Source of the DNA: Tagaea sp.
Lineage (GTDB): Bacteria; Pseudomonadota; Alphaproteobacteria; CACIAM-22H2
Length of the DNA stretch: 64,000 nucleotides
Assembly: GCA_044378015.1 (NCBI GenBank)
Contig: JBILXZ010000008.1
Span: 9,917-73,916 of the forward strand
Direction of reading: 5' to 3'
Part shown: positions 28,290 through 37,134 of the stretch, piece by piece
Layout of the letters: each line of letters opens with the position of its first letter
Position numbering within the stretch: position 1 is the first letter of the stretch
Program-made: the position numbers and the translations under genes
Notes under the pieces: model-generated
Told to the model about the DNA's origin: nothing
The model's input: the letters and a program-made list of their open reading frames with translations, nothing else
Database searches by the model: none

Positions 28290-28402
28290 TTTTCGCCGTC
28301 GAAACACCCGATTGCGTATATCCCGACCCTGCCGACAGGGTCGGCGCTTCGCCATTCTCGATCCTCGGTTTCTTCAGTGCCGCTTCAGATCGGAAAAGCG
28401 CG

Positions 28403-28909
28403 ATGCCAAAATATCTCGTCGTCTACTACTCTTGGACAGGCAACACGGCGAAAGTCGCCAAGCTGATTGCGGTGACGCTTGGCGCCGACATCGAAGAAAT
28501 CCGCGAGGCGAAGCCGCGTCGCGGGTTCTTCGCCTTTACGGCTTCCCTGGTCGCTTCGGTCCTCAAGCGGTCGCCGCCGATTCTGGAATCGATAATAAAT
28601 GTCGTCGACTACGACATCGTTATTCTGGGCTGCCCCGTATGGGGCGCGAACATGGCGACGCCGATGCGCGCCTACTTGACGCGGGAAGGTCCGCGCACGA
28701 AAGAGATCGCGTTGTTCTGTACGTTGGGCGGCAGCGGAGGCAAGGCCACCCTTGCCCGGATGGCAGCGCTTTGCGAGCGCACGTCGCTCGCCGATCTTGC
28801 CTTGAACCAGCCTGCAATTGCCTCCGACGCGTGGCGCAGTTCGGTCGAGCTTTTCGCTCGGCAGATCCAAAAGAGCGACGCGACCCCAAGCGACCGCGCC
28901 GCCGCTTGA
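28403..28909 (+). CDS. Flavodoxin-like protein
   Basis: YYSWTGNTAKVA, LGCPVW, FCTLGG motifs. Confidence 0.85.
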   Translation: MPKYLVVYYSWTGNTAKVAKLIAVTLGADIEEIREAKPRRGFFAFTASLVASVLKRSPPILESIINVVDYDIVILGCPVWGANMATPMRAYLTREGPRTKEIALFCTLGGSGGKATLARMAALCERTSLADLALNQPAIASDAWRSSVELFARQIQKSDATPSDRAAA

Positions 28910-28986
28910 AAGACCGCGCCTTCGCTGCAGACGCTTGGACGACAGACGATTAGCATTTTTCGATTGCGGCGGGGCGGTCTGCCGCG

Positions 28987-29034
28987 TGGCGTTCCCTAGG
29001 GGATTCGAACCCCTGTATCCACCGTGAAAGGGTG
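28987..29034 (-). repeat. att site: duplicated 3' 48 bp of tRNA-Glu
   Basis: TGGCGTTCCCTAGGGGATTCGAACCCCTGTATCCACCGTGAAAGGGTG is identical to 35409-35456. Confidence 0.95.
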
Positions 29035-29137
29035 TAAACTAGTCCTTTCTGGGACATGCTCAGACGGTACGAGATACAAGTATTCCAATAAAATATGAGT
29101 TTTTATATCCCCTTGCGTCCGGCACCGTTCCACCCCA

Positions 29138-29165
29138 TGTTTGCCGTACACTTGCCGTACGGCAC
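29138..29165. repeat. 28-bp direct repeat, putative integrase arm-type site (copy 1; copy 2 at 35340-35367)
   Basis: TGTTTGCCGTACACTTGCCGTACGGCAC occurs near both ends, each with tandem TTGCCGTAC. Confidence 0.8.
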
Positions 29166-29179
29166 GAAGGGGATGAGAA

Positions 29180-30505
29180 ATGGCCCGCACCTCTCGCAGC
29201 GCTCGCATCGAAACGCGCACCAAGCGCCTTAAATTGCCAATACGGCGCGAACCCTATTGGCACTCGATTGAGGCCGGTTTCGCCTTGGGCTATCGGCGCC
29301 TCGCTGGCAACAAGGGCGGCACCTGGATTGCCAAACGCTACGTCAAAGGCGAGCGGCGCGTTTTGAAGGCCCTTGGGACGGCGGATGACTTTACCGACGC
29401 GGACGGCGTGCGCGCTCTTACATTCGCCCAAGCCCAAGCGGGCGCGCGGCAATGGCTTGTAGATTTGGCCATCGCGAAAGCCGGGGGCGTCGATCCATCC
29501 AAGCCCTACACCGTCAGCAACGCTTTGGATGACTACCTCGCGCACTACGTCACCAAGGGCGGACGGGCAGAAATTGCAGCACGGCGCGCAATCGATAATT
29601 TGATCCGGCCCGCGATGGGCAGTATCCCGCTCGCCAATCTCACCTTCGGCCAAGTCGAAAGTTTCCGCGACGGACTTGCGGAAATTGGCCGCCGGTTCCG
29701 AACGAAAAAGGGTACGCCCCACAAGCCCGAAAAACTCCGGGTAAACGACCCCGAGCAACGGCGAAAGCGGCGCGCCACCGCCAATCGCGTATTCACATTC
29801 CTACGGGCGGCCCTCAATCGCGCCTATCAAAAACAAAAAGTCGCATCCGACGCAGCATGGGCGTCGATAAAGCCCTTCGAAAAGGTAGATGCGCCGCGCG
29901 AACGATACCTTACGGATGATGAGGCCGTGCGCCTCGCAAATGCCTGCGCCCCCGACATGCGAGCCCTTGTCACGGCGGCGCTGCTGACGGGGTGCCGCTA
30001 TGGCGAGCTAATCGCGATGCGCGCGGGGCATTTTGACGGCGATAATGGGACGCTCCACATTCCCGAGCCGAAATCCGGCAAGCGGCGCGACGTGGTGCTT
30101 GCCAGTGAAGGCCGCCAATTCTTCGAAGCCGCAACAATGGGGAAGGTTGCTACCGAACTCGTATTTCTGCGGGCCGGTGGCAACGCTTGGAAGCGTGTAG
30201 ATCAGGTCCGCCCGCTTAAAGCCGCATGCAAGGCCGCACGGATTTTCCCAGCGGTGGGCTTCCATATCTTGCGGCATACCTACGCCTCGCGCCTCGCGCG
30301 CGCAAATGTCCCCATGGTGGTTATCGCGAAGCAACTCGGGCATGGCGATTTGCGAATGACAACGCGGCACTACGCGCACCTATCGCCCGGCTACGTCGCG
30401 GACACAGTGCGCGCCGCTTTCGGTTCGATGGGGCTTGTCGATATGAAGCCCGGCAACGTCGCTTCTATGGAAGCGGCACGGGCCAAGAAAGGCGCGCCGC
30501 TCTAG
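29180..30505 (+). CDS. int: Tyrosine recombinase / integrase
   Basis: Catalytic set present: TGCRYGEL (R), PKSGK (K), FHILRHT (HxxR), LGH (H), RHYAH (Y); N-terminal arm-binding-like domain. Confidence 0.93.
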   Translation: MARTSRSARIETRTKRLKLPIRREPYWHSIEAGFALGYRRLAGNKGGTWIAKRYVKGERRVLKALGTADDFTDADGVRALTFAQAQAGARQWLVDLAIAKAGGVDPSKPYTVSNALDDYLAHYVTKGGRAEIAARRAIDNLIRPAMGSIPLANLTFGQVESFRDGLAEIGRRFRTKKGTPHKPEKLRVNDPEQRRKRRATANRVFTFLRAALNRAYQKQKVASDAAWASIKPFEKVDAPRERYLTDDEAVRLANACAPDMRALVTAALLTGCRYGELIAMRAGHFDGDNGTLHIPEPKSGKRRDVVLASEGRQFFEAATMGKVATELVFLRAGGNAWKRVDQVRPLKAACKAARIFPAVGFHILRHTYASRLARANVPMVVIAKQLGHGDLRMTTRHYAHLSPGYVADTVRAAFGSMGLVDMKPGNVASMEAARAKKGAPL

Positions 30506-30536
30506 CGTGCGCGCGCTGGCGTGATACACTCTAGAC

Positions 30537-30591
30537 CGATGGGGATAGGGCGGCCACCCGACAAGCGCAAACCGTATGTGCTTCCCCATCG
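30537..30591 (+). ncRNA. Structured RNA between integrase and alpA-like genes (int-alpA motif-like)
   Basis: Outer stem CGATGGGGA/TCCCCATCG encloses hairpins GGG-CGGCCA-CCC and AAGCGCA/TGTGCTT; extended -10 TGATACACT just upstream. Confidence 0.5.
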
Positions 30592-30621
30592 CAACGATAC
30601 GGACGCCCGGACGGAGGGCGC

Positions 30622-31182
30622 ATGATTCGGCGCAAAAAATCAAAGCCACTCGATACCCCTATTTCAAATCACAACCTGCTGGCCGCCTTGCTAGACAATC
30701 GGGAGCCCACAAAAGCTGAGCTTGAGCAGCATCAACTTAGCGTTGCTCGACAAGAAATTATAAAACTAGATAATCTATTGAGCGAATTTGGAATCGAGCG
30801 AAATAGATTTGAGCTGTTTGTGTATCGTGATCTAGCGCTTGCGCTCGCACGAAAGTATATCGACGGGTTCAAAAATGAATCAGAAATTGGCGGAAAGGTT
30901 GGAAGAAAGCCAAGCTGGACGCCCATAGCGTTAGCTTATCTTCTTGCGATGTTCGAAAAACTACAGGCAGAAACAGGGGCGCAATCCAAAGAGCTTTACT
31001 ATCGCCTTGCCGATGAAATCAAAGCGGTAAATCCAGAGCTTAAGCTGGGTGCGGGGGCAGTTAAAAACAGGCTAACAGAGGCTCGCGCGTTGCGAGACGC
31101 CGGGGAGCTACCCGACACTCCGCACAAAAAGTGGCATCGAAATAAAATCGGTGCCACGCGGCTGTTTGAGAAGGTGAAATAA
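30622..31182 (+). CDS. Hypothetical protein (low GC, possibly DNA-binding)
   Basis: 186-aa ORF with GGAGGG RBS; GRKPSW followed by a helical region. Confidence 0.65.
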   Translation: MIRRKKSKPLDTPISNHNLLAALLDNREPTKAELEQHQLSVARQEIIKLDNLLSEFGIERNRFELFVYRDLALALARKYIDGFKNESEIGGKVGRKPSWTPIALAYLLAMFEKLQAETGAQSKELYYRLADEIKAVNPELKLGAGAVKNRLTEARALRDAGELPDTPHKKWHRNKIGATRLFEKVK

Positions 31183-31256
31183 TCATATTAATGGAAATGC
31201 AGGCACCAGCGGACGCATATCGCGTACGCGCGTGTTCTCTCACAAGGGATGCCTGC

Positions 31257-31448
31257 ATGGAAGCGATTACCCTGACAATCCCCGACGCGGTTAAGGCATC
31301 GGGCGCTAGCCGTACCTCAATTTACGAAGCCTTGCGGCAAGGCAAACTCACCGCTCTAAAACACGGCAAGCGCACGCTCATTCCAGCGGACGCCTTGAAG
31401 GCATGGCTTTCGAGCATGCCCGCCTATCAGCCGTCGCAAGCTGCATAG
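31257..31448 (+). CDS. Excisionase / AlpA-like HTH protein
   Basis: LTIPDAVKASGASRTSIYEALRQGKL...GKRTLI. Confidence 0.85.
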   Translation: MEAITLTIPDAVKASGASRTSIYEALRQGKLTALKHGKRTLIPADALKAWLSSMPAYQPSQAA

Positions 31449-31453
31449 GCATG

Positions 31454-31488
31454 AAAAAGCCCGGAACGCGGTGAGACGCGCCCGGGCT
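31454..31488 (-). terminator. Antisense-oriented intrinsic terminator
   Basis: AAAAAGCCCGG...CCGGGCT gives a hairpin plus U-tract on the minus strand. Confidence 0.6.
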
Positions 31489-31531
31489 GGATCAATTGGC
31501 ACTTAACCCCCTTCGAAAAGAGTTAAGCAAA

Positions 31532-31723
31532 ATGAACCTACACAATCCGCGTATCGCGGGCAACGTTGTCGATTTGCCGCTGTTCCTTTGGGCGGCAACG
31601 CAACAGCCCCGCGATTATCCCACCGCCGCAAAACGGCTTGCGCGTCGGTACGGGCTTCAAATTCCAACGGCGGCGGTTATCGCCTCGCTTGCCGGATTCA
31701 ATGCCAACGAGGTGCGCGCATGA
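31532..31723 (+). CDS. Small hypothetical element protein
   Basis: 63 aa; AKRLARRYGL...IASLAGF; ATGA-coupled to the next gene. Confidence 0.6.
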   Translation: MNLHNPRIAGNVVDLPLFLWAATQQPRDYPTAAKRLARRYGLQIPTAAVIASLAGFNANEVRA

Positions 31724-32028
31724 AACGGCTTACCGTTGAATTCGAGACTTACGAAAACGGCGCGTCCATCGTGCGAGAGGTGCGCGGGCAAACTGCAAAG
31801 GCGCAGGTTGCGCTGGTCGATGCCGGTAGCGAGGGCATAACAGCGCTTGGGTGTGGCGCTTGGGCCTTTCGCCTTGCCGCGTACTGTTTCGACCTTCGCA
31901 AAGAATACGGCTTGGCAGTCCGCACCGACCGCGAAGAACACGAAGGCGGCTGGCACGGGCGGCATGTACTGGAAACGCCGGTTCGTATCGTTCGCATCTT
32001 GGGCGACGAAGAACGGGCGGCGGCATGA
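31720..32028 (+). CDS. Winged-helix domain protein
   Basis: ALVDAGSEGITAL...RLAAYCFDLRKEYGLAVRT.REEH...HGRHVL; translationally coupled. Confidence 0.7.
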   Translation: MKRLTVEFETYENGASIVREVRGQTAKAQVALVDAGSEGITALGCGAWAFRLAAYCFDLRKEYGLAVRTDREEHEGGWHGRHVLETPVRIVRILGDEERAAA

Positions 32029-32339
32029 AGGAACTGCAAACCGCAAAGACGGGGGGCGCGGCGCAAGCCGCGCTTCCCATCGCCCCGCCGGATACGCGGC
32101 TCTTGTGCTGGCGCTACCCAATCGGCTGGGAAAAGTGGGAGGTGCGGCTTGAAGCCCATCAAACCAACGACCCCGCAACTTTCGGGCGCGTGTTCATATC
32201 TGACGAAGAAGACAACCGTGTAGAATTGGATTGGCAGACGTTGCGCGATATGGCCGACAATCTACAAGGTGCGGTCGATACGCTTTGGGACGATAGAGAG
32301 GCGGCACGCAAGGCCAAGGCGAGCGGTGCCGATGGCTAG
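32025..32339 (+). CDS. Hypothetical protein
   Basis: 104 aa; ATGA overlap upstream and 8-bp overlap downstream. Confidence 0.55.
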   Translation: MKELQTAKTGGAAQAALPIAPPDTRLLCWRYPIGWEKWEVRLEAHQTNDPATFGRVFISDEEDNRVELDWQTLRDMADNLQGAVDTLWDDREAARKAKASGADG

Positions 32340-32781
32340 GCGTGGCGGGCGTGTCAATGCGACCGGCCGGAATGAGGGAGGGGCATACGCGCCCCTCTCT
32401 TACCAGCTACTGCAATCGCCCGCGTGGCGTTCGCTGAGTGGTCCGGCCGCCAAGGTTTGGTTAGAGCTACGGACGCGATACAGCGGCGCGAACAACGGAC
32501 GCCTGTCGCTGAGCCGCGACGAAGCCGCACGCATCCTGGGGCTTGGCAAGGCGACGGTAGGGCGTGCGCTCGACGAACTAGAGGCAAAGGGTTTTGTCGA
32601 ACTCAAACGGCGCGGCAAGTGGTACGGCCGCATGGCGAGCGAATGGCTTGTGACGGACAGGGGCACCGACAATGCGCCCCCGTCGAACGCTTGGCGGCAA
32701 TGGCAACCGTCCGGCAACGTACAGCCATCGGTTCTGAGTCGGACCATAAAAACAGAAATCGGTTCTGAGGTGGACCCGTGA
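32332..32781 (+). CDS. HTH protein, putative replication initiator
   Basis: SPAWRSLSGPA...NNGRLSLSRDEAARILGLGKATVGRALDELEAKGFV; iteron-like repeats overlap its 3' end. Confidence 0.7.
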   Translation: MARRGGRVNATGRNEGGAYAPLSYQLLQSPAWRSLSGPAAKVWLELRTRYSGANNGRLSLSRDEAARILGLGKATVGRALDELEAKGFVELKRRGKWYGRMASEWLVTDRGTDNAPPSNAWRQWQPSGNVQPSVLSRTIKTEIGSEVDP

Positions 32782-32883
32782 CACGCACGACGGGTCCGCT
32801 ACAGAACCGAAGGCCAAAAATATGGTCCGCTACAGAACCCGTCAGGGGCATTTTGGGTGCGCCCTTCGGTTCTGAGATGGACC
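32728..32883. repeat. Five 18-bp iteron-like repeats (TCGGTTCTG-N4-GGACC)
   Basis: Direct copies at 32728, 32759 and 32866; inverted copies at 32793 and 32824. Confidence 0.85.
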
Positions 32884-33267
32884 GCTATTATTACCATGGG
32901 GGTACGGGGGAGAGAGGCGCTAGCAGTGACCGGCACCAAGGGGCGGCGGACAGGGACGGCGCGTGCGCCCCCAAGGCGCATGACGCGACGGACCCCGCCA
33001 ACCCGGTCTATCCGTTTCGAAGAACCTTGGACCCGCGAAGCGGGCTTGTAGGAAAGACCATCGCGCACCGGCCCATCGCCAAGCGGCCCAAATTCGCCCG
33101 GCAAGCCGTCCGGCAATCGCGCACATGGTCGCTGCTACCCTGCGAACCCCAAACGCGCCAGCGGCCCGCTAATGGTGTTTGCGCGGCGCTCTATCGAAGA
33201 TTCTGCAATGCCATCAAGGGCGGCAATCGAGATAGCCAAACGATTTAGGAAAATCTGAGAGGCAAAA

Positions 33268-33882
33268 ATGGGCGGATCGAACTCGGGAAGGTCGGGCGGG
33301 CGGCCAACGGCAGAAGCGTGCGGGAGCCTTCGGCTTTCGATGCCCAAATTGCGACCGATTGACGGGGCGCTAATCGAATATCTCTTTCGATACGAGTGCG
33401 ACGGCGAAGAATATCCCGTCCGCGTCACTTTCGACTTTTGCACGCCCGGCAGACCGTTCGCCCTTGTGCGGCACCATGCCCGCACGGGCGACAGCGAAGA
33501 ATTTGAATATCGCGTCGGGCTGGCGCGCTCGCCTTGCAGATTCGGCGGTTGGCGCTGGTGGTGGGAGTGCTCGGCAAATGGGGACCGGGTGTTTAAACTA
33601 TTTCTGCCGAGAGGCGGGCGGCGGTTTCTATCCCGGCGCGCGTATCGCCTGGGCTTCGCCTCGCAACGCATGTCGGCGCTGGACCGAGCCCATCGGGCAA
33701 AAGACAAAATCGAACGGCGCTCGTGGTGGCACGATGACGGCACGCCCTGTCCGGCACCCGGCATGCGGCGGCGGACATTCGAAAAACTGGTCGCACGATG
33801 GGAAGCGGCGGACGAAAGGCTAGAGGTCCAATGGGAGCCCCGGACCCTTCGCCTCTTGGCGCGCATGATGGGTATGCGGTGA
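33268..33882 (+). CDS. Hypothetical protein of phage/integrative elements
   Basis: MGGSNSGR start; CRFGGWRWWWEC, RVFKLF, LGFASQR, PGMRRRTFEKL motifs. Confidence 0.7.
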   Translation: MGGSNSGRSGGRPTAEACGSLRLSMPKLRPIDGALIEYLFRYECDGEEYPVRVTFDFCTPGRPFALVRHHARTGDSEEFEYRVGLARSPCRFGGWRWWWECSANGDRVFKLFLPRGGRRFLSRRAYRLGFASQRMSALDRAHRAKDKIERRSWWHDDGTPCPAPGMRRRTFEKLVARWEAADERLEVQWEPRTLRLLARMMGMR

Positions 33883-33939
33883 ATTTCGAACACAGTACGC
33901 GCGGGCGCGCATCATGGGGTTTTTGAGATAGGAGCGGCA

Positions 33940-34134
33940 ATGCGACAAAAAATAAAATGTGGCGCGCGGACCCGACGCGGGGCGCCCTGCCAGTGCAAAG
34001 CGATTCGGACGAAGCGAGGGGCGATGCGTTGCCGGTTGCACGGTGGGTTATCGAGCGGTCCGAAAACCATTGAAGGCCGGGCGCGAATTTCTGAGGCGAT
34101 GCGCCAGCGGTGGGCGGCACAGTCCGGCAATTAG
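33940..34134 (+). CDS. HGGxSTG-domain protein
   Basis: CGARTRRGAPCQ...RCRLHGGLSSGPKTIEGRARI; GGAG RBS. Confidence 0.85.
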   Translation: MRQKIKCGARTRRGAPCQCKAIRTKRGAMRCRLHGGLSSGPKTIEGRARISEAMRQRWAAQSGN

Positions 34135-34289
34135 GGTTTTCCGACTTTTGACAGGCCATGCGCGCGCGTGCGGGCGTGTCATGGGGTATTGGGACTTTTC
34201 CGGGAGGCATGCCAAAAAGCCCATGAGATATTGCAAGATTGGAAATTGCGCTTAGCATACGCAAAAGTAGGTTAAATGGAGTGGCGCCG

Positions 34290-35105
34290 ATGAAATGGTG
34301 GTTACTTTCTAAAGCCGTTGAAGCGATGGATTCGCCTAACGGTCCTGCCATTCCAAAGGCCAATTGGGCTCGCGGTTTTTTTCGTATTTGGGTCGTCGTG
34401 TCTGCGTTGTGGGCTACCGGCGTAACTCTCGTGGAATATTCCACTTTTGAGGAGGCTTGGGCATATCAATTTGGTGCCCTCGATTACGGGGTGGCTGTAT
34501 ACCCCAGCGACGCAGGGCGTCTTGCAATTCGTGACAATAGGGACTGGCAATCACGATCTCACGAATCCGCACAGCAGGCAGAACAACCCTGGGTAATTTT
34601 CCCCGTTAAATGGCCTTCCGCGAATGTGGTTTTCGCGGACGTGCGGGATGAGCTTCTAAACGGTATTCGAGGCACCCAGGAGGGAGTTGCGGAGCGTCGA
34701 GTCACGTTAAGTTTGTTGGAGGCGGCAACCCGAAAGCTTATTCCCGAGGCCCCGGACCTGAAGAAACTCACCAATGACGAAGTACTGGCAATTCAGCAGA
34801 TTCTATCGACTCCGACGCTCGCTAGCCTAATGGTGAATTTCGACAAGGCCCGAGGCCCAAACGCTCGAGAAAATGCCATACGGGATATAACGTTGCGCCG
34901 TGAGTTTCTCGAGAAGCCCCCGGAGCATTTTGAATTGCTCGCGGGGAGGCTTTTTGATTGGATACTTGAAGACCACGCCAAAATGCGGCGCGCCAAAATT
35001 TGGGGGGTGATTCAAGCCTTTGGATATATGATTAGCTTTCCGCTGCTCACTTTGCTTTTTGGATTGATGATTCGCTGGATTATGCGCGGCTTCTCGCCTG
35101 CATGA
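34290..35105 (+). CDS. Cargo membrane protein of unknown function
   Basis: TM near N-terminus (RGFFRIWVVVSALW) and at C-terminus (FPLLTLLFGLMIRWIMRGF); AT-richer than host genes. Confidence 0.7.
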   Translation: MKWWLLSKAVEAMDSPNGPAIPKANWARGFFRIWVVVSALWATGVTLVEYSTFEEAWAYQFGALDYGVAVYPSDAGRLAIRDNRDWQSRSHESAQQAEQPWVIFPVKWPSANVVFADVRDELLNGIRGTQEGVAERRVTLSLLEAATRKLIPEAPDLKKLTNDEVLAIQQILSTPTLASLMVNFDKARGPNARENAIRDITLRREFLEKPPEHFELLAGRLFDWILEDHAKMRRAKIWGVIQAFGYMISFPLLTLLFGLMIRWIMRGFSPA

Positions 35106-35408
35106 ATTACTTTCAATTTTGGAGTGTCTAGCCCGGCGCGCGGCTTCCGACATAGACAGTAGACAGATATCGCCCAGCCCATCGCTCGAAACAATTTTGC
35201 GACAAATACGCCCGCGCGCATCATGGGGTTTCCGCAGAAATACGCGCCCGCGTCATGGGGTGTTGTGGGGCGCACCCCGATCCGAGAGAAAAAATTTCGC
35301 CGAATCGAAACTGCCGGGCAAAGGGCATTTCCAGCAACGTGTTTGCCGTACACTTGCCGTACGGCACCGTTTAGCGGGGGAGCATGTCTGCTAAGATATT
35401 GAAAAAGC

Positions 35409-35484
35409 TGGCGTTCCCTAGGGGATTCGAACCCCTGTATCCACCGTGAAAGGGTGGTGTCCTAGGCCTCTAGACGAAGGGAAC
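35409..35484 (-). tRNA. tRNA-Glu (TTC)
   Basis: 76-nt cloverleaf GTTCCCTTCG...CCACCCTTTCACGGTGG...GGTTCGAATCCCCTAGGGAACGCCA. Confidence 0.97.
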
Positions 35485-35530
35485 TTGGGCCCGCAGAAGG
35501 AGCTCTATGTAGCGAGGTCGCTTGCGTAAA

Positions 35531-35941
35531 TCAAGCCTCGAAGACGGGCTTGGCGGCAACGAGCGGCAGGCGCACGCAATCGAGGCGGCTTGAATGGCGC
35601 GCGACCGGCAAAAACGCCGCCCAAACGCCGTTTTCTGAGGTTTTTTGGCCCACTAGCACGCGCGCGAGGGCGGTCTCGGCGGCGGCAAAAGCAGCCGGTC
35701 CCTGGCCTTCGAGGCTGGCGGCGAGCGCTGCGGCCGCGGCCTGGCACAGCACGCACCCGCGCACAAAATGGCCGACGCGGCGCACGCTGCCGTCGGCCGC
35801 GCGGTCGACATCGATCGTGACGCGGTCGCCGCACAGCGGATTGTCGCTGGTGTGGCTGTGCGTGGGCGCCTCCAGGCGTCCGGCATGGCGCCGATCCTTG
35901 GCCAATGCGAGAATCGCGTCGTGGTAGAGGGCGTCGCTCAC
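35531..35941 (-). CDS. SufU/IscU-like sulfur-transfer or scaffold protein
   Basis: LYHDAIL, DNPLCGDRV, GCVLCQAAA, RLDCVRL motifs; GTG start overlaps the sufS stop. Confidence 0.85.
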   Translation of the reverse strand: MSDALYHDAILALAKDRRHAGRLEAPTHSHTSDNPLCGDRVTIDVDRAADGSVRRVGHFVRGCVLCQAAAAALAASLEGQGPAAFAAAETALARVLVGQKTSENGVWAAFLPVARHSSRLDCVRLPLVAAKPVFEA

Positions 35942-37134
35942 AAAAGGGTCTTTCTGGCCAGTGCAAGCCCTTCGAAAAACGCGTCGATGTCGCTGTCGTC
36001 GCTGTAGAGGGCGAGCGACGCGCGCGTTGTGCCTGCGAGATCGAATCGCTTGTGCAGGGGCTGCGCGCAATGGTGGCCGCCGCGCAAGGCCACGCCCGCG
36101 CCGTCCATGATCTGGCAGATATCGTGCGGGTGGGTTCCCTCGAGCGCGAACGACACGACCGGAGCCCGCGCTTGCAGGCTCTGCGGCCCCAGCACGCGTA
36201 TCCCCGGCGTCGCCGCCAACCCGTCGAGTAGGCGCTGGCACAGACGCGTCTCGGTGGCCGCAATCTCGGACCAGGGCAAGGTGCCGAGCCATCGGCAGGC
36301 GGCGCCAAGGCCGATCGCCGCTCCGATGGGCGGGGTGCCCGCTTCGAATTTCGCGGGGGCTGCGGCCCAACTGCTGTGCGCAAGTTCGACCTGGGCGATC
36401 ATCTCGCCGCCGCCGAGGAAGGGCGGCATCGCGTCGAGCAATTCGGCGCGCGCCCACAAAACGCCCACGCCGTGGGGCGCAAAAACCTTGTGGCCGCCGA
36501 ACGCGTAGAAATCGACGCCCAAGGCTTTGAGGTCGAGCGGTCCGTGCGGGGCGCGCTGGGCGCCGTCGAGCAGCACGCGCGCGCCCACTTTGGAAGCCGC
36601 CGCAACGACTGCAGCGACGTCGAGCACGGCACCTGTCACGTTCGAAACGTGGGCAAGCGACACGAGCTTGACGCGTTCATCGAGCTTCGTCTCGAGGCCC
36701 GAAAGATCGATGCGGCCCTCGGCATCGACGTCGAGAAACCGCAGTTCCACGCCGCTGCGCGCGGCCAGCATCTGCCAGGGGACGAGATTGGAATGGTGCT
36801 CGAGCCCGCTCAGCAGCACCGCGTTGCCCGGTTTCATCGAGACGCCGAATGCGTGTGCGACGAGATTGAGGGCCGCCGTGCAGCCGCTCGTAAACACGAT
36901 CTCGGACGCGGGCACGCCGAGATAGGAAGCGACGTCGCTGCGTGCGGCGGCATAGGCGTCGGTTGCGGCTTCTGCCAGGCGATGCACGCCGCGTTTGACG
37001 TTGGCACGCGACGTCGTTTCGAACGCGCGCACGGCGTCGAGCACGGTATGCGGCATCTGCGCGGTTGCCGCCGAGTCGAGATAGGCGAGGCCCGGACGGA
37101 GGATCGGGAACTGGTCGCGCAGCGCTTGTGTCAT
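35938..37134 (-). CDS. sufS: SufS-family (group II) cysteine desulfurase
   Basis: YLDSAATAQ, EHHSN, DGAQ, GGHK, FEAGTP, RGGHHCAQP motifs. Confidence 0.9.
   Translation of the reverse strand: MTQALRDQFPILRPGLAYLDSAATAQMPHTVLDAVRAFETTSRANVKRGVHRLAEAATDAYAAARSDVASYLGVPASEIVFTSGCTAALNLVAHAFGVSMKPGNAVLLSGLEHHSNLVPWQMLAARSGVELRFLDVDAEGRIDLSGLETKLDERVKLVSLAHVSNVTGAVLDVAAVVAAASKVGARVLLDGAQRAPHGPLDLKALGVDFYAFGGHKVFAPHGVGVLWARAELLDAMPPFLGGGEMIAQVELAHSSWAAAPAKFEAGTPPIGAAIGLGAACRWLGTLPWSEIAATETRLCQRLLDGLAATPGIRVLGPQSLQARAPVVSFALEGTHPHDICQIMDGAGVALRGGHHCAQPLHKRFDLAGTTRASLALYSDDSDIDAFFEGLALARKTLL

Follow-up and report, generated by a model that had tools for sequence, protein, structure and literature searches.

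A compact tRNA-Glu island of a lake alphaproteobacterium as a candidate integrative hitcher in an orf8-marked family

How most genomic islands move is not known, and helper-dependent “hitcher” islands have been put forward as a general idea (PMC11389934, in the portion drawn on here). PICMIs (phage-inducible chromosomal minimalist islands) of Vibrionaceae are described, in the cited part of PMC10803314, as lying next to fis and being packaged by a helper as concatemers, and the SatelliteFinder model given there combines an integrase (PF00589, PF00239 or PF07508), AlpA (PF05930 or PF12728) and a primase (PF13148 or PF19263). P4-like satellites and Gram-negative phage-inducible chromosomal islands (PICIs) share an int-alpA-pri architecture, in which “int-alpA” denotes a gene order and not an RNA, according to the excerpted text of PMC13612085, and marine virion-encapsidated integrative elements (VEIMEs) were recovered from virions as concatemers (PMC9618062, likewise in part). 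Here we analyze a 64,000-nucleotide stretch of Tagaea sp. (GenBank assembly GCA_044378015.1, contig JBILXZ010000008.1, positions 9,917 to 73,916 of the forward strand; hereafter the window, with positions counted from its first letter), which carries a 6.4-kb island at a tRNA-Glu gene. PICMIs, as far as the cited part describes them, are the closest described system in size and economy. The island is a variant with a winged-helix initiator and no primase within a family of int-alpA-initiator “hitcher” islands marked by orf8, the gene of an MGGxxSGR protein. We put the probability that it is an intact small integrative hitcher, excised by Int and Xis, replicated through Rep and iterons and moved by a borrowed transfer helper, at roughly 0.55.

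The tRNA-Glu island and the orf8-marked family

Perfect 48-nt direct repeats bound the island, 6,422 bases apart from start to start, and a repeat search together with ARAGORN and Rfam bears out the attachment (att) repeats proposed in a first-pass annotation of the window. Since tRNA-Glu(ttc) spans 35409-35484 on the minus strand (Rfam tRNA 59.9 bits), the right repeat is the 3' 48 nt of that gene. Between the repeats lie ten genes, all on the plus strand and with all ten reading frames open, which agrees with the single-strand run from int to cargo noted earlier. G+C is 0.48-0.63 in the island, 0.60-0.66 in the left flank and 0.65-0.71 in the right flank, and the island is single copy within its own genome, a metagenome-assembled genome of a lake alphaproteobacterium that is 96% complete. 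The boundaries and the central genes are:

28987-29034, no strand assigned: attL, copy of the 3' 48 nt of tRNA-Glu (perfect 48-nt repeat of 35409-35456).
35409-35484, minus strand: tRNA-Glu(ttc), whose 3' 48 nt (35409-35456) are attR (ARAGORN, Rfam, repeat search).
29180-30505, plus strand: int, tyrosine integrase, 441 aa (PF00589, E 2.9e-23; phrog_1, E 1.1e-59).
31257-31448, plus strand: xis, excisionase/AlpA-class HTH_17 protein, 63 aa from an internal ATG (PF12728, E 2e-9; TIGR01764, 32.5 bits, cut-off 28.8).
32332-32781, plus strand: Rep-like winged-helix initiator-like protein, 149 aa (N-terminal ~100 positions of phage initiator profiles).
33268-33882, plus strand: orf8, MGGxxSGR protein, 204 aa (alignments, AlphaFold model, profile search).

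The integrase translation contains R in TGCRYGEL, K in SGKRRD, HxxR in HILRHT, H in LGHGD and Y in RHYAHL, which we take to be the R-K-H-R-H-Y signature, and together with the PF00589 match these legible residues uphold the earlier call of an integrase with its catalytic residues. The xis start was fixed by a 76%-identical homologue in a relative (L017), and PF05930 gave no match to the protein. Capsid, portal, terminase, primase, helicase and relaxase families matched none of the island’s 10 genes and none of 12 further open reading frames (ORFs) in other frames or on the opposite strand, in line with what the sequence had suggested at first inspection.

We define the orf8-marked family by a tRNA location and an orf8 homologue directly behind an initiator, primase or helicase gene, with an integrase upstream on that same strand, and the window island has this arrangement. 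Eight relatives could be delimited by tRNA repeats of 14-69 bp (6,455, 7,438, 7,067, 8,124, 8,348, 8,969, 10,875 and 11,361 bp), integrated at tRNA-Ser, Lys, Arg, Thr, Glu and Ala, and they share the order int, xis, initiator, orf8, cargo, a conservation of gene order at tRNAs in other genomes that had been proposed as a check on the locus. Across nine delimited elements int is present in 9/9, orf8 in 8/9, the winged-helix Rep in 7/9 and a PF22324 protein in 5/9, and the integrases and excisionases come from different subfamilies. Where Rep is missing from a delimited element, Toprim+DUF3631 (L031) or DUF3987 (L032) takes its position, and elsewhere DUF927 (L064, L071), DUF5906/Pox_D5 (L089), AAA_25 (L086) or other genes (L033, L034, L038, L040, L061, L088) stand upstream of orf8. 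Gene content at this position is where initiator modules (winged-helix Rep, Toprim+DUF3631, DUF3987, DUF927, D5-like) are shown to swap. Among 57 loci examined, with L057 and L027 being one and the same locus, 46 contain a near-full orf8; at least 22 of the 46 have a same-strand integrase within 9 kb upstream, at least 23 an upstream gene for an initiator, primase or helicase (19 found by tblastn and 4 more by Pfam), and at least 23 a tRNA within 8 kb, all three being lower bounds given the small query set and the many short contigs. Cargo in relatives includes defense genes, such as an MmeI-type restriction enzyme (L035) and an SNase (L030). One candidate circular relative, L019 (G004:C139, 7,004 bp with 119-bp identical ends), was rejected, its ORF translations giving chemotaxis-type genes and a 55-aa orf8 fragment; it is probably an assembly artifact or a repeat-bounded segment.

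The earlier proposal of a type outside described families stands insofar as the island lacks the full P4-like, PICI and PICMI gene sets; an isolated new type it is not, for it represents one variant within a large family, and primase-helicases occupy the same position in the other members. The MGGxxSGR protein is the family hallmark, not cargo, and on present profile matches orf8 marks a large, apparently unnamed element family. The same relatives bear on whether the island could be a decayed prophage. A phage-type integrase and excisionase, along with a match of the HGGxSTG protein to phrog_6177, would suit such an origin, but no structural, lysis or terminase gene is found in the island or in the eight similar-sized relatives, which are compact and bounded by tRNA repeats, and phage structural families were absent from every element scanned. 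Moreover, the compact architecture is conserved across classes, orf8 gave 0 matches in 50,697 phage records, and larger islands with related integrases are defense islands. Prophage decay is accordingly a highly improbable account, and the small mobile element of the first-pass annotation has support.

The AlphaFold model of orf8 (predicted local distance difference test, pLDDT, 80 for the whole protein and 89.8 for residues 16-135) begins with a disordered N-terminus bearing the near-invariant MGGxGSGRxGGxPTxE, followed by a beta-rich domain, an FGGxRWWxCPxxGRR...LxLPxGGxxFxSRxAYxLxYxSQR segment and a C-terminal helical hairpin. Because at least one member (P0178) keeps four cysteines in the FGGxRWW segment, this segment can be read as a degenerate zinc ribbon. 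A profile built from 30 close clusters retrieved 12,247 cluster representatives at E<=1e-3, of which 5,507 remained at E<=1e-10. In family searches, Pfam matched 0 of 47 diverse members, the window copy alone had no match in PHROGs, NCBIfam or PADLOC, the ESM Atlas returned unnamed clusters only, and no fused longer form turned up among 8,000 candidates between 603 and 2,000 aa in length, a weak line of evidence. Foldseek gave nothing at E<=1e-3 for the whole model against PDB and BFVD or for the N-terminal domain against PDB, a wide VIA-align search with the whole model returned generic helical hairpins only (best Z 7.0) and reached a best Z of 4.3 with the N-terminal domain, and the best PDB sequence-profile match had E 0.13; the lack of a fold neighbor is no proof of a new fold.

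Among species representatives, the orf8 profile matched 18 of 400 other genomes of the class and 16 of 400 genomes across the phylum, including 9 that lie outside the class, the phylum tally including one genome (G774) flagged as unpublished. In IMG/VR the single orf8 protein found 0 relatives, a result that does not test encapsidation, and the profile found 4 distant loci in which prim-pol, D5-type primase or helicase genes precede orf8 and integrases stand alongside. Two loci (L035 and L056) carry two tandem orf8 paralogues side by side. In metagenome run X1, a second contig of 139 nt over 33463-33601 differs at 6 positions inside orf8 and has about half the depth of the main allele, which suggests a related island variant in the same lake sample.

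Orf8 relatives also occur on 19 plasmid records, among them three Psychrobacter plasmids of 4.5-5.0 kb. On Psychrobacter pA22P3 (L096, 4,811 bp), of which a literature text search found no mention, an orf8-like gene comes after, and is overlapped by, a YagK/YfjJ (inovirus Gp2-type) gene beside a separate RepM, with a small ORF and a glycosyltransferase also present, and this plasmid would be a handy minimal system for orf8. A Leisingera plasmid of 10 kb has the order HTH_17, winged-helix protein (440 aa), orf8, and next to these stand ParA and an annotated replication initiator distinct from them; on a Solidesulfovibrio plasmid orf8 comes after a winged-helix gene and a helicase-type gene of 1,131 aa. 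Orf8-like matches (34-35% identity over ~57% of the query) were seen on a 10.5-kb Solidesulfovibrio plasmid (H15) and on a 35-kb Haloferax gibbonsii plasmid (H12); one being deltaproteobacterial-type and the other archaeal, the orf8 core domain reaches well beyond Pseudomonadota.

The plasmid records lend themselves to another explanation, in which the island is an integrative mobilizable element served by a conjugative helper, the repeat cluster is an origin of transfer (oriT), and the winged-helix protein and/or orf8 are DNA-processing accessories or a new relaxase. The Leisingera plasmid, which has its own Rep besides the HTH_17, winged-helix and orf8 module, points the same way, as does an island at the same tRNA-Glu in another genome (G005), whose related integrase is accompanied by a MobA/MobL relaxase. 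Set against this, no relaxase family was found in the window island or the eight delimited relatives, 16 of the 19 orf8 plasmids are typed non-mobilizable, the conserved residues of orf8 include no HUH-type motif, and primase-helicases, which are replication proteins, hold the same position in sister elements. We consider mobilization of this kind unlikely.

Recombination sites, replication and mobility

For the intact hitcher that we favor, Int and the HTH_17 excisionase would recombine the two 48-bp cores into a 6,422-bp circle. Two identical 28-nt blocks lie just inside the boundaries:

29138-29165, plus strand: 28-nt block with two TTGCCGTAC repeats, candidate P' arm-type Int site and int operator (perfect repeat of 35340-35367).
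35340-35367, plus strand: second 28-nt block with two TTGCCGTAC repeats, candidate P arm-type Int site (perfect repeat of 29138-29165).

The left block lies 103 nt inside attL and 14 nt upstream of the int start, the right block 41 nt inside attR, and all four exact copies of TTGCCGTAC in the window fall within the two blocks. As the blocks would flank the core on both sides in the excised circle, we infer that they are arm-type integrase sites, and the position of the left block just before int means that Int could regulate its own gene. In the relative L032, six GCGGACCC copies occur within 200 bp (element positions 127-320) beside att and the int start, and by analogy with the 28-nt blocks these may be arm-type sites.

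Once excised, the circle would be replicated in a plasmid-like manner by host enzymes, with Rep binding 18-bp iterons across its own stop codon and filling the role of the primase-helicases placed likewise in sister elements. Orf8, because it sits directly after whichever initiator is present, would act after initiation, on replicating or excised DNA. In PHROGs the Rep-like protein matches phrog_270 (2.6e-7), phrog_186 (1.3e-6), phrog_678 (3.5e-5) and phrog_345, in each case only the DNA-binding N-terminal part of O-like or DnaD-like phage initiators, and its residues 12-97 share 40% identity with the 155-aa “replication protein O” of PP003913, which precedes a primase there. The putative binding sites lie at the end of the gene:

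32728-32883, no strand assigned: iteron cluster of TCGGTTCTGnnnnGGACC, three direct copies and one inverted, with a degenerate inverted copy at 32825-32842 (motif search).

The 18-bp TCGGTTCTGnnnnGGACC iterons yield 4 matches vs 0.02 expected and 0 elsewhere in the window, straddle the rep stop codon, and are separated by A+T-richer spacers, local G+C falling to 0.43-0.53. An initiator gene beside at least 3 repeats of 17-22 bp and an A+T-rich stretch characterizes an iteron-type replicon; this arrangement is found here, with an initiator identity that is itself weakly supported, and 32728-32883 is a candidate replication origin. Four of the 7 rep-bearing elements (the window island, L016, L017 and L026) have an element-specific repeat cluster at the rep 3' end, and the clusters differ between rep alleles yet keep to that end. 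We read Rep as an initiator because of the O/DnaD-like origin-binding match, the identity to the PP003913 protein and these clusters. Of the earlier description of a primase-less, iteron-replicating element, the missing primase and the iterons beside a winged-helix initiator-like gene have held up, and the replication itself we infer.

An ORF at 32778-33248 (156 aa) has a GTG start that overlaps the rep stop and spans the iterons and a stretch of G+C 0.85 (32940-32979). It was set aside as a gene, having no family and no clustering with ORFs of the eight delimited relatives, and may be a non-coding origin region. Four IMG/VR loci found with the single Rep protein were likewise dismissed, the match being confined to 27-29 C-terminal residues.

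Several observations weigh against an intact, self-replicating hitcher. No repeat cluster was found at rep, by the criterion used, in 3 of the 7 rep-bearing elements, and no DnaA box within the island. The initiator call comes from weak matches (E 1e-7 to 1e-4) to the DNA-binding domain only, a domain that also has sub-threshold matches to MarR and Crp regulators. The Leisingera module stands beside another initiator and therefore need not be a replicon. The integrated state is known from one metagenome-assembled contig, and no direct sign of excision, replication or transfer was seen, whether as a circle, amplification, packaging, a virion copy or a helper.

Part of this evidence could be accommodated if the winged-helix protein were a transcription regulator only and the 18-bp repeats its operators, the island being excised and reintegrated without replication of its own. 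The sub-threshold matches include MarR_2, Crp-like HTH, IclR HTH and CRISPR-associated regulators, Rep homologues are labelled “ArsR family regulator” or “biotin operon repressor” in source records, and the island has no helicase, primase or DnaA box. However, the PHROGs that match best are four families of initiators or loaders, homologues of Rep often carry PF13730, its position is interchangeable with that of primase-helicases, and the repeat clusters vary by rep allele while staying at the rep 3' end. A purely regulatory role is, in our assessment, quite unlikely.

The insertion site was compared in 30 further genomes, of which 18 belong to the same genus. In two species (G003 and G004) the flanks and tRNA-Glu are present without an integrase and without att duplication at the orthologous site, and in G005 the same flanks enclose a different island of 22.6 kb with a 51-bp tRNA repeat and an integrase 62% identical. 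Stretches of the window island were found in 24 lake-water metagenome runs, with no RNA run listed, and contigs of 4 runs over 28400-36000 break at the 48-bp repeat and so can show neither a circle junction nor an empty site. Contig depth, given as one figure per contig and allowing no copy-number conclusion, was 7.9-8.6 for the island and 10.3-12.7 for the flanks in run X1, and ~8.3 for the island and 2.8-5.5 for the fragmented flanks in run X10. Circular contigs, recognized by a terminal overlap of at least 15 bp, numbered 0 among 80 kept metagenome loci (of 452 confirmed relatives). The island’s own genome had no match to PF05065 capsid, PF03354 TerL or PF03135 VirB4, which does not by itself show that a helper is absent.

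A fixed remnant, which arrived site-specifically and is no longer mobile, would agree with the lack of a circle or empty site in contigs that could show neither and, weakly, with an island depth near flank depth in the likely source sample. Yet both the 48-bp repeats and the 28-nt blocks are perfect, ten frames are open, and the orthologous site lacks the island in two species of the genus and holds a different element in a third, which leaves fixation improbable.

Returning to the intact hitcher, a helper must be borrowed because the island itself encodes neither transfer nor packaging functions. Phage particles would be the most likely helper and a conjugative system the next; a phage helper taken alone, and with it a phage-satellite life style, is plausible, at somewhat short of even odds. 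A wider proposal is held only tentatively and with more doubt, namely that minimal integrative replicons and small plasmids may form a very large unnamed class with orf8 as its signature, a gene that would couple the circle to a borrowed transfer route (capsids or another helper). If true, it would amount to a new hitcher or satellite family with a breadth like that of P4-like satellites and PICIs, with freely exchangeable integrase and initiator modules, in several Pseudomonadota classes and other phyla. With core, arm blocks, iterons and ten genes readable in 6.4 kb, the island offers a minimal model for excision, copying and hitching. Knowing what orf8 does would provide annotation for thousands of small islands and plasmids, of which many carry defense genes, and could reveal a new satellite or hitcher step outside the enterobacterial and staphylococcal models.

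Further genes, cis-sites and the insertion hot spot

The remaining genes and cis-sites of the island, in order of position, are:

30538-30602, plus strand: int-alpA RNA-like structured element (RF02996, full model 1-71, 31.7 bits, E 0.0013 over 6.8 kb).
30622-31182, plus strand: orf2, 186 aa (G+C 0.48, lowest in the island).
31496-31723, plus strand: orf4, 75 aa, opens a translationally coupled run (homologues in L016, L017, L018).
31720-32028, plus strand: winged-helix protein (HTH_91), 102 aa, start overlaps the orf4 stop (ATGA) (PF22324, E 7.8e-18; phrog_25676, E 1.3e-11).
32025-32339, plus strand: orf6, 104 aa, coupled by ATGA overlap (homologues in L016, L017).
33907-33920, plus strand: 14-nt box GCGYRTCATGGGGT, copy 1, 20 nt before the HGGxSTG gene (motif search).
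33940-34134, plus strand: HGGxSTG-domain protein, 64 aa (NF041373, 53.7 bits, cut-off 29; phrog_6177, E 1.9e-5).
34174-34187, plus strand: 14-nt box GCGYRTCATGGGGT, copy 2, upstream of orf10 (motif search).
34239-35105, plus strand: orf10, 288 aa (271 aa if the start is 34290), hydrophobic stretches near both ends.
35216-35229 and 35248-35261, plus strand: 14-nt box GCGYRTCATGGGGT, copies 3 and 4, before attR (motif search).

The int-alpA RNA-like element begins 33 nt past the int stop and ends 19 nt before orf2. Its class is already in Rfam (RF02996), and its score of 31.7 bits falls below the gathering score of 35.8, which was reached by only 3 of 31 relative loci scanned, at the equivalent position of L026 (54.2 bits), L016 (44.9) and L027 (39.7). 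In an alignment of the four sequences, compensatory changes occur in 6 of 13 predicted pairs, and the predicted int-alpA fold of the window copy is supported by these changes shared with three above-threshold relatives. The 14-nt box gives 4 matches vs 0.12 expected, all on the plus strand, inside the island, intergenic and at the cargo end, with no exact copies elsewhere in the genome or in relatives. In the circle, copies 3 and 4 would face int across attP. The boxes are preceded by G+C-rich near-palindromes. What is new at this locus is the set of 28-nt arm-type blocks, the 18-bp iterons, the near-threshold int-alpA motif and the 14-nt box.

Orf4, the HTH_91 gene, orf6 and the Rep-like gene overlap successively by 4, 4 and 8 nt. 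Neither orf2 nor orf10 matched a family in Pfam, PHROGs, NCBIfam or PADLOC; for orf10 the ESM Atlas returned unnamed clusters only, and its record there begins at residue 18. The HGGxSTG protein, of which a literature text search found no mention, and the membrane protein orf10 are cargo. PADLOC assigned no defense family to 9 island proteins, save for weak helix-turn-helix (HTH) matches of Rep.

The tRNA-Glu site is a defense-island hot spot. The G005 island (L014+L015, G005:C11:1052000-1084000) carries, besides its relaxase, an OLD-type ATPase and a UvrD helicase, presumably a Gabija-like pair, together with ABC-3C components (DUF3732, MC3, CTD7), AbiEi-like, ResIII, methylase and restriction genes and insertion sequence (IS) fragments. 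In G013 (L020+L021+L018, G013:C2:336000-378000), the int, xis, orf4, winged-helix and rep genes adjoin type I restriction genes and those of a NACHT-type protein of 1,458 aa, a BglII-type restriction enzyme accompanied by a C5 methylase, and a resolvase; a second integrase (DUF6538) is also present, and this island is probably tandem or composite, ~31 kb in length. Neither the G005 nor the G013 island is a prophage.

Comparison with described systems

P4 carries the capsid-hijack genes sid, psu and delta and an alpha-type primase-helicase. Measured against the parts of the sources cited at the outset, the window island is like P4-like satellites and PICIs in its tRNA site, tyrosine integrase, small HTH regulator, replication module, single coding strand and far-end cargo or defense genes. 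Unlike them, it has no primase-helicase, sid, psu, delta, terS, rpp-type packaging or capsid genes by Pfam and PHROGs. A P4-like assignment fails on the absence of any primase, helicase or head-related family in those two databases, and a Gram-negative PICI assignment on the absence of pri, with int and an alpA-class gene present.

The comparison with PICMIs is subject to the same partial sources. Of the PICMI markers, the island carries an integrase (PF00589) and AlpA (PF12728); no primase marker was found among the 10 genes and 12 other-frame ORFs, and the site is tRNA-Glu rather than fis. Like PICMIs, it spans ~6 kb, combines Int, an AlpA/HTH_17 regulator, one replication gene and few other genes, and lacks capsid-remodelling and packaging genes. 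Unlike PICMIs, it has a winged-helix initiator-like protein with iterons, and it has orf8. The PICMI primase markers are present in relatives, namely L032 (int, HTH_17, DUF3987; PF13148) and L089 (DUF5906/D5; PF19263). VEIMEs, too, are small and integrative, and according to the available portion of PMC9618062 some are alphaproteobacterial and some have no known satellite replication genes or have plasmid-like replication. They are defined by encapsidation, and no virion copy of the window island was seen.

Pseudomonas “phage” vB_Pae_U1 (PP003913.1, 16,187 bp) has a comparable integrase, cox-type regulator, run of small ORFs and 155-aa O protein, and differs in that its O-like protein is followed by a DNA primase. 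Rep is only 149 aa long and has no recognizable partner-recruiting C-terminal domain, and no P-like loader gene was recognized in the island, both unlike the lambda arrangement. Lambda-type O proteins have an N-terminal winged-helix origin-binding domain and iterons in or next to their own gene. The structured element that follows int and precedes the regulator genes is, in its place and its predicted fold, like the int-alpA RNA of RF02996.

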